Positions 46,615 through 47,907 of a stretch of DNA of 64,000 bases are shown here, piece by piece (the first letter of the stretch is position 1; every line of letters begins with the position of its first letter). The stretch lies in assembly GCF_056712565.1 (NCBI RefSeq), contig NZ_CM160072.1; one strand, 5' to 3'. Made by a program: the position numbers and the translations under genes. The notes beneath the pieces are model-generated. The model made no database searches. It saw only the letters and a program-made list of their open reading frames with translations, and was not told where the DNA came from.

Positions 46615-46974
46615 ATGACCAAACAGGTAAAAATCTACCATAACCCACGCTGTTCAAAGAGCCGGGAAACGCTGAACCTGCTGAAAGAAAACGGCGTGGA
46701 GCCAGAAGTGGTGCTCTACCTTGAGACACCCGCCGATGCGGCAACGCTGCGTGATTTGCTGAAAATGCTGGGGATGAATAGCGCTCGTGAATTGATGCGC
46801 CAAAAAGAGGATCTTTATAAAGAACTGAACCTGGCTGACAGTTCGCTTAGCGAAGAGGTGCTGATTCAGGCGATGGTAGAGAATCCGAAGCTAATGGAAC
46901 GCCCGATTGTGGTCGCGAATGGCAAAGCGCGGATTGGTCGTCCACCGGAGCAGGTACTGGAAATCGTGGGTTAA
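46615..46974 (+). CDS. yfgD: ArsC-family protein YfgD
   Basis: 119-aa ORF 'MTKQVKIYHNPRCSKSRETL..' matches recalled YfgD. Confidence 0.93.
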   Translation: MTKQVKIYHNPRCSKSRETLNLLKENGVEPEVVLYLETPADAATLRDLLKMLGMNSARELMRQKEDLYKELNLADSSLSEEVLIQAMVENPKLMERPIVVANGKARIGRPPEQVLEIVG

Positions 46975-47003
46975 GATGTGCTCCATCGCTAGTTGAAGCA
47001 CAT

Positions 47004-47099
47004 TGCCGGATGCGACGCTTGCCGCGTCTTATCCGGCCTACGAATACTATGGATTAACTTCGCGTAGGTCGGATAAGGCGTTCGCGCCGCATCCGACAA
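47004..47099. repeat. BIME: two REP elements in inverted orientation
   Basis: TGCCGGATGCGACGCTTGCCGCGTCTTATCCGGCCTACG and its inverted partner CGCGTAGGTCGGATAAGGCGTTCGCGCCGCATCCGACAA. Confidence 0.85.
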
Positions 47100-47111
47100 T
47101 AAACACCTTAT

Positions 47112-47813
47112 CTACAACTTCAGAATTTCTTTCACAAACGGAATGGTCAGCTTGCGTTGCGCGGTAATCGACGCACGATCCAGCTGATCCAGCGTCATAA
47201 ACAACGTGCGCATTTCTCTGTCGAGCCGCTTCAGCAAGAAACGCCCCACATCTTCCGGCAGTTCAAAACCACGCAAACGCGCGCGTAACTGTAGCGCCTG
47301 CAACTTATCTTCATCAGAAAGTGGCTGCAATTTGTAGATCTGCCCCCAGTCGAGACGCGACGCGAGATCCGGTAATCCCAGATTCAACTGCCGCGGTGGA
47401 CGATCGCCGGTGATCAACAACCGTGTTTTGCCCGATTCCAGAATTCGATTGTAGAGATCGAAAATCGCCATCTCCCACAACTCATCGCCGGCAATACACT
47501 CAATGTTGTCAATACAGACCAGCGACAAATGCTCCATACCGTCGAGCACTTCCGGAACAAACCAGGTGCGTTTATCCAGCGGGACATAGCCCACCGCATC
47601 GCCACGCTGTGACAATTCCGCGCAAGCCGCGTGCAGCAGATGGCTGCGCCCCGCGCCTTCGCGTGCCCAGAGATAGATGTAACCGCTATGTTCCTGACGC
47701 AGCACGTTTTGCAGCGCGGCCAGTAAAGAGGAGTTATCCCCCGGCCAGAAACTTGCAAAGGTTTCGTCGTCAGGAAGATAAAGTGGCAAAGAGAGCTGTG
47801 CCGGTGTGTTCAG
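47112..47813 (-). CDS. hda: DnaA-inactivating protein Hda
   Basis: ORF track 47112..47858 (248 aa); Hda is, as I recall, 233 aa initiating at a CUG 15 codons inside; the codon at 47811..47813 is CTG (read as cag on plus strand). Confidence 0.85.
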
Positions 47814-47907
47814 AGATACCTCAACCAGGATTTCACAAAATCGCGAGAAGTTTACCACAGAATCCCATGATGTTTGAACCGGGCAGCAACACTGCCCGGT
47901 CGGTACA

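Follow-up and report, generated by a model that had tools for sequence, protein, structure and literature searches.

Which codon starts the hda gene, and does the longest open reading frame at this locus give the protein that the cell makes? The window analysed here is the whole stretch of 64,000 nucleotides from contig NZ_CM160072.1 (assembly GCF_056712565.1). The longest hda frame in it lies on the minus strand at 47112..47858, running from a GTG at 47858..47856 to a stop codon at 47114..47112 and coding for 248 amino acids. Codon 16 of this frame is a CTG at 47813..47811, which on the plus strand is read as 'cag' at 47811..47813. The preliminary description of this DNA had singled out the 248-residue frame with a CTG inside it, and direct reading gives the same coordinates and the same two lengths (248 and 233 residues). 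It had further stated that functional Hda has 233 residues and initiates at CUG, and this is borne out by the literature, by the RefSeq coding sequence, by the numbering of PDB 5X06 and Kim et al. 2017 and by cross-species comparison. It is almost certain that the product of hda (minus strand, 47813..47112) is the DnaA inactivator Hda of 233 residues, translated from the CUG at 47813..47811. The gene and its start are described as follows.

47112..47813, minus strand: hda reading frame from the CTG, 233 codons and a stop; DnaA inactivator Hda, 26.6 kDa
47811..47813, minus strand: CTG (CUG) initiation codon, read as fMet, on the basis of sequence, literature and conservation
47814..47858, minus strand: 5' leader and probable promoter DNA, non-coding; 15 in-frame sense codons from the GTG at 47858 to the CTG

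The 911 nt around the hda start belong to E. coli. They are 100% identical to ATCC 11775 and 95-100% identical to essentially every complete E. coli genome. The gene order is bepA (+), arsC/yfgD (+), hda (-) and uraA (-). Several side observations were made in this neighbourhood. The uraA gene (47908-49239, minus strand) has a longest frame of 443 aa from a TTG as against 1290 nt, or 429 aa, in RefSeq, and is thus a second local gene whose longest frame exceeds the annotated start. The plus-strand gene at 46615-46974 is named 'arsenate reductase (glutaredoxin) arsC' by PGAP and 'putative oxidoreductase YfgD' in the K-12 reference. The convergent intergenic region between arsC and the 3' end of hda (46970-47139) contains two REP-like palindromic units, which score 36.7 and 35.7 bits against the REP-derived naRNA4 family of Rfam (RF02564), below its gathering score of 59.5. 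In 1 of 5,426 complete E. coli genomes the hda region (47050-47960) finds no match, which may reflect a deletion of hda together with suppressors or an oddity of the assembly. One E. coli match to the region sits on a plasmid.

The CUG start of E. coli hda has been known since 2008 and is in the reference annotation, so the result for E. coli is not new. According to EcoGene 3.0, CTG as the hda start and a functional protein of 233 aa go back to Su'etsugu et al. 2008 (JBC 283:36118), where the native N-terminus of Hda was reportedly mapped to the CUG. The RefSeq coding sequence of 702 nt begins exactly at the position corresponding to 47813 in ATCC 11775, in two other PGAP-annotated strains and in K-12 MG1655 (proteins WP_001307333.1 and, for MG1655 at 2618075..2618776, NP_416991.2). 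The UniRef representative HDA_ECOLI is also the 233-aa sequence. In PDB 5X06 the Hda chain consists of a 20-residue tag followed by MNTPAQ..., its Met aligns with Leu16 of the long frame, and it is identical to the Hda of the window over 233 residues. The calculated mass is 26,632 Da and Kim et al. 2017 states 26.6 kDa. The residues numbered in that paper (6-QLSLPL-11, E17, W23, G55, R56, S57, N103, R153, W156 and R177) fit a count from the CTG, and residue numbers and mass together agree with the 233-aa numbering only. Literature searches for ribosome-profiling or N-terminal proteomics evidence specific to hda found none, and the supplements of Salmonella riboproteogenomics contain no hda entry.

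The preliminary description had also expected automated annotation to miscall the N-terminus. This does not hold for PGAP and RefSeq, since the three PGAP-annotated E. coli genomes that were inspected all have the CTG start, as does the curated K-12 RefSeq record; it does hold for gene callers limited to ATG, GTG and TTG. By exact-sequence look-up, models of 248 aa (from GTG), 233 aa and 225 aa (from TTG) were each found on at least 1000 contigs in public collections. Further models include one of 241 aa in Salmonella, one of 200 aa in Yokenella and many variants of 235 to 272 aa, and the 235-aa models in other Enterobacterales look doubtful. Callers restricted to the three canonical codons thus give wrong hda N-termini, be it 248, 241, 235, 225 or 200 aa.

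The identity of the protein is clear. It scores 476.6 bits against the NCBIfam Hda model NF005982 (cut-off 268) and 281.4 bits against TIGR03420 (cut-off 194.8). The AAA+ domain has the Box VII arginine finger Arg153 and the ADP-binding residues at their published positions, as R153, W156, G55, R56, S57, N103 and R177 all are. For the identical protein, the literature describes stimulation of the hydrolysis of DnaA-ATP with the DNA-loaded clamp, called RIDA (Kim et al. 2017). The choice of start bears directly on a short motif at the N-terminus.

47781..47798, minus strand: beta-clamp-binding motif QLSLPL, codons 6-11, from translation and Kim et al. 2017

Counted from the CTG, the window Hda matches the pattern QL[SP]LPL at residues 6-11, and in the crystal structure of Kim et al. 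2017 6-QLSLPL-11 is bound in the clamp cleft. The start site therefore sets the place of the motif, at residues 6-11 rather than 21-26. In distant Hda homologues the clamp motif lies 1-12 residues from the N-terminus, a position that matches the short E. coli form. The start site also decides which protein gets expressed for biochemistry. Early work with the 248-aa form is reported to have yielded a protein that behaved poorly.

Translation from the GTG at 47858, with the 248-aa product of the longest frame as the real Hda, is one rival reading. GTG is a canonical start codon, the frame stays open over the 15 codons and the 248-aa model is widespread in public collections. Against it, the literature, RefSeq, UniProt and the PDB construct all have 233 aa, and the extension would move the clamp motif to 20 residues from the N-terminus as compared with 1-12 in the homologues. 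The comparison of the upstream DNA weighs further against the GTG. The set consisted of 80 Enterobacteriaceae loci from species-representative genomes (92-100% protein identity) and the window, making 81 sequences. In this alignment the extension (47814..47858) is broken by indels that disrupt the frame. An in-frame stop occurs within 15 codons upstream of the CTG in 60 of the 81, and in 46 there is no ATG, GTG or TTG between the nearest in-frame stop and the CTG. Klebsiella pneumoniae, for instance, has a TAA 7 codons upstream of the CTG and no canonical start after it. A GTG at codon -15 in an open frame was found only in E. coli, E. albertii and a few Citrobacter, 8 of 81 sequences altogether. 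The extension is non-coding in character.

A separate observation concerns one locus of the alignment that is labelled E. coli strain SCPM-O-B-8794 (L005:1431-1530). It carries a 1-nt insertion in the extension (AAATCCCTGG versus AAATCCTGG), which puts the upstream GTG out of frame. No complete E. coli genome among roughly 5,425 has the insertion, and every E. coli genome with a full-length match shows 97.0% identity to this form. Its absence from complete E. coli genomes indicates that this GTDB species representative belongs to a divergent lineage and is not E. coli proper.

The start position itself behaves quite differently from the extension. It is CTG in all 81 Enterobacteriaceae sequences, and ATG, GTG or TTG stands there in none. 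In the same alignment, none of the 30 invariant leucine positions keeps a single codon, and a single codon is kept at only 2 of the 162 positions with an invariant residue other than Met or Trp. The CTG is thus neither a leucine codon retained by chance nor a case of ordinary leucine conservation. Downstream of it the variation by codon position is 0.052/0.012/0.319 over the 81 sequences, which is the pattern of coding DNA. In front of the CTG stands a ribosome-binding sequence.

47818..47822, minus strand: Shine-Dalgarno GAGGT, with 5 nt between GAGG and the CTG, from alignment and duplex energy

GAGGT is present at -9..-5 in 80 of 81 sequences, with a shift of 1 nt in the remaining one. The duplex with the anti-Shine-Dalgarno was calculated at -6.9 kcal/mol for the CTG, the best of the three candidate starts; at the upstream GTG a weak GGGA, 4 nt ahead of the codon, gives -4.0 kcal/mol, which is a point in favour of the GTG. 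What is expected of a usable CUG is found here, namely a conserved CUG, orthologues without an upstream canonical start and a Shine-Dalgarno sequence at a working distance. No structured RNA of Rfam was found around the hda start, and the predicted fold of the leader is unremarkable at -10 kcal/mol.

The third candidate start lies inside the gene.

47787..47789, minus strand: TTG at Leu9, gene-caller start of the 225-aa model, not the real start

Translation from this TTG (47789..47787) would give a protein of 225 aa. In 43 of the 81 sequences it is the canonical start nearest downstream of the CTG, and the 225-aa model is one of those on at least 1000 contigs. Yet the codon for Leu9 is TTG in 43, CTG in 37 and TTA in 1, and is therefore not TTG in 38 of 81. 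The TTG has no Shine-Dalgarno sequence (-1.7 kcal/mol), and a start there would delete Q6-S8, half of the motif that binds the clamp in the crystal structure. With a variable codon, no Shine-Dalgarno sequence and a halved clamp motif, the internal TTG was rejected, and its chance of being the start is vanishingly small.

At the upstream GTG the alignment points to a probable promoter element.

47849..47859, minus strand: TGTGGTAAACT, probable extended -10, with TG at 47857-47856 and the hexamer TAAACT at 47854-47849, from conservation
47873..47878, minus strand: possible weak -35 TTCAAA with an 18-nt spacer, from reading of the sequence
47877..47901, minus strand: 11-bp G+C-rich hairpin, terminator-like and without a U-tract, just past the uraA stop codon

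The element TGTGGTAAACT overlaps the GTG that opens the 248-aa frame. In the form TGnTAnAnT it is present in 81 of 81 sequences; its TG, TA and final ACT are 100% conserved and the n position is free. In TGgTAAACT a TGn precedes a hexamer with T at -12, A at -11 and T at -7, as in an extended -10 element. The motif also occurs in Yersinia, Erwinia, Hafnia, Xenorhabdus, Proteus, Serratia and Ferrimonas. Judged from this conservation, TGTGGTAAACT is the probable extended -10 element of the hda promoter. Transcription would then start near 47842 (about 2618805 in K-12), giving a leader of about 29 nt that would not include the GTG. The conserved motif accounts for the local conservation of the GTG without any coding role. 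A generic consensus scan of 47000..48400 for promoters and terminators called no promoter, and the putative -35 is weak, which is why such a scan would miss this one. The supplements of Cappable-seq contained neither an hda entry nor a coordinate matching a start near 47842. The overlap of the GTG with a conserved motif of this kind counts against it as a start codon, and with the evidence from protein and alignment it makes translation of a 248-aa Hda extremely unlikely. It also shows, with hda as the example, how a promoter element, here the TGn of a probable extended -10, may be mistaken for a start codon.

A compromise would be dual initiation, in which the CUG gives the main 233-aa Hda and the GUG gives a minor 248-aa form on transcripts that read through from uraA. 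The hairpin behind uraA bears on this proposal. It forms, at 47901..47877, in the minimum-free-energy fold of 47905..47770, and the alignment shows conservation both of the hairpin and of the TT that follows it. The hairpin has no run of T, and for this reason the terminator scan did not list it. A hairpin without a U-tract makes read-through transcripts that contain the upstream GUG plausible, and GUG by itself initiates far better than CUG. But even closely related genera do not keep the extension as coding sequence, the upstream GUG has a poor Shine-Dalgarno sequence, and literature searches found no report of a long form of Hda. Dual initiation is considered highly unlikely, and the CUG is retained as the start of hda.

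Outside the Enterobacteriaceae the CTG is found in 7 further Enterobacterales and in [Pantoea] beijingensis. Yersinia, Erwinia, Hafnia, Dickeya, Xenorhabdus and Proteus (L085-L090) have GAGGTGCTT immediately before the CTG. These genes are like E. coli hda in being orthologous and in having GAGGT-N4-CTG, and most of them share the uraA-hda-arsC neighbourhood; they differ in that their models begin two codons upstream of the CTG. These 235-aa models (MLLNTPAQ...) start at a GTG about 6 nt upstream, which is the 3' end of the Shine-Dalgarno sequence itself (GAGGTG) and has no Shine-Dalgarno sequence of its own. The NCBIfam profile NF005982 likewise has 235 positions. Serratia aquatilis has a 2-nt insertion that shifts this GTG out of frame and a TGA into it; no canonical start lies in frame upstream there. 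[Pantoea] beijingensis has GTA in place of the GTG and lacks a canonical start all the way back to a TAA, 14 codons upstream. The same GTG is absent or out of frame in all the Enterobacteriaceae examined. Members of three families thus have no start available but the CTG, whose sequence is conserved across the order, and the 235-aa models may be two residues too long. The called starts in three distant homologues, from Ferrimonas, Corallincola and one 63%-identical gene, are GTG, TTG and GTG. All three being other than ATG may hint at weak start codons being general in hda, in a sample that is far too small for such a statement.

A simple course of initiation can be proposed from these data. 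The conserved GAGGU, 5 nt upstream, would position the 30S subunit with the CUG in the P site, and the initiator fMet-tRNA would read the CUG with a C:U mismatch at the first codon position. Hda would then begin Met-Asn-Thr-Pro and carry QLSLPL at residues 6-11, and the 15 sense codons upstream would stay untranslated, serving as 5' leader and as part of the hda promoter.

Why should a gene keep so poor a start codon? Initiation at CUG has been put at 1-2% of the AUG rate (bioRxiv 10.1101/063800) and at 0.86% of AUG in a second source, where CUG accounts for 0.024% of the start codons of bacteria (PMC11497404). The title of a paper cited in PMC5397184 states that overexpression of Hda inhibits multiplication. 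The stronger start codons TTG, GTG and ATG would give 10-100 times more protein than CUG, and none of them stands at the start position in the 88 other genomes examined, the window also having CTG. As these codons are one mutation away and are never seen, weak initiation seems to be selected, presumably to keep Hda scarce. The CUG would most likely be a built-in throttle on Hda, and an output of about 1% of that from AUG would explain the scarcity of the protein. A wider claim is that CUG is actively selected across the order Enterobacterales as a regulatory device that fixes how many Hda molecules there are and with it the rate at which DnaA is inactivated, and that the 235-aa models and NF005982 are too long. 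This we put forward tentatively, as possible and on the whole rather doubtful. If it were true, the CUG start, being probably sensitive to IF3, would perhaps tune the number of Hda molecules with the translational status of the cell; synthesis of Hda responding to IF3 through the CUG is speculation. The additions of the present analysis to what was known are small: the invariance of the CUG across the order, the proposal that the false GTG belongs to an extended -10, and a question mark over the 235-aa models.

Rare near-cognate start codons with a Shine-Dalgarno sequence and low expression are shared by hda with yfjD, which starts at CTG, and with infC and pcnB, which start at AUU. The AUU start of infC underlies the autoregulation of IF3. 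This regulatory loop marks a difference, as no such loop is known for hda. The yfjD gene is the second confirmed CTG start in E. coli (EcoGene 3.0). The hda gene of K-12 (b2496, UniProt P69931), whose CTG start is recorded in EcoGene, EcoCyc, RefSeq and UniProt P69931, is the same gene as in the window, with the same protein, CTG, Shine-Dalgarno sequence and upstream sequence, and the two differ by strain-level SNPs only, at about 98.9% identity over 911 nt.
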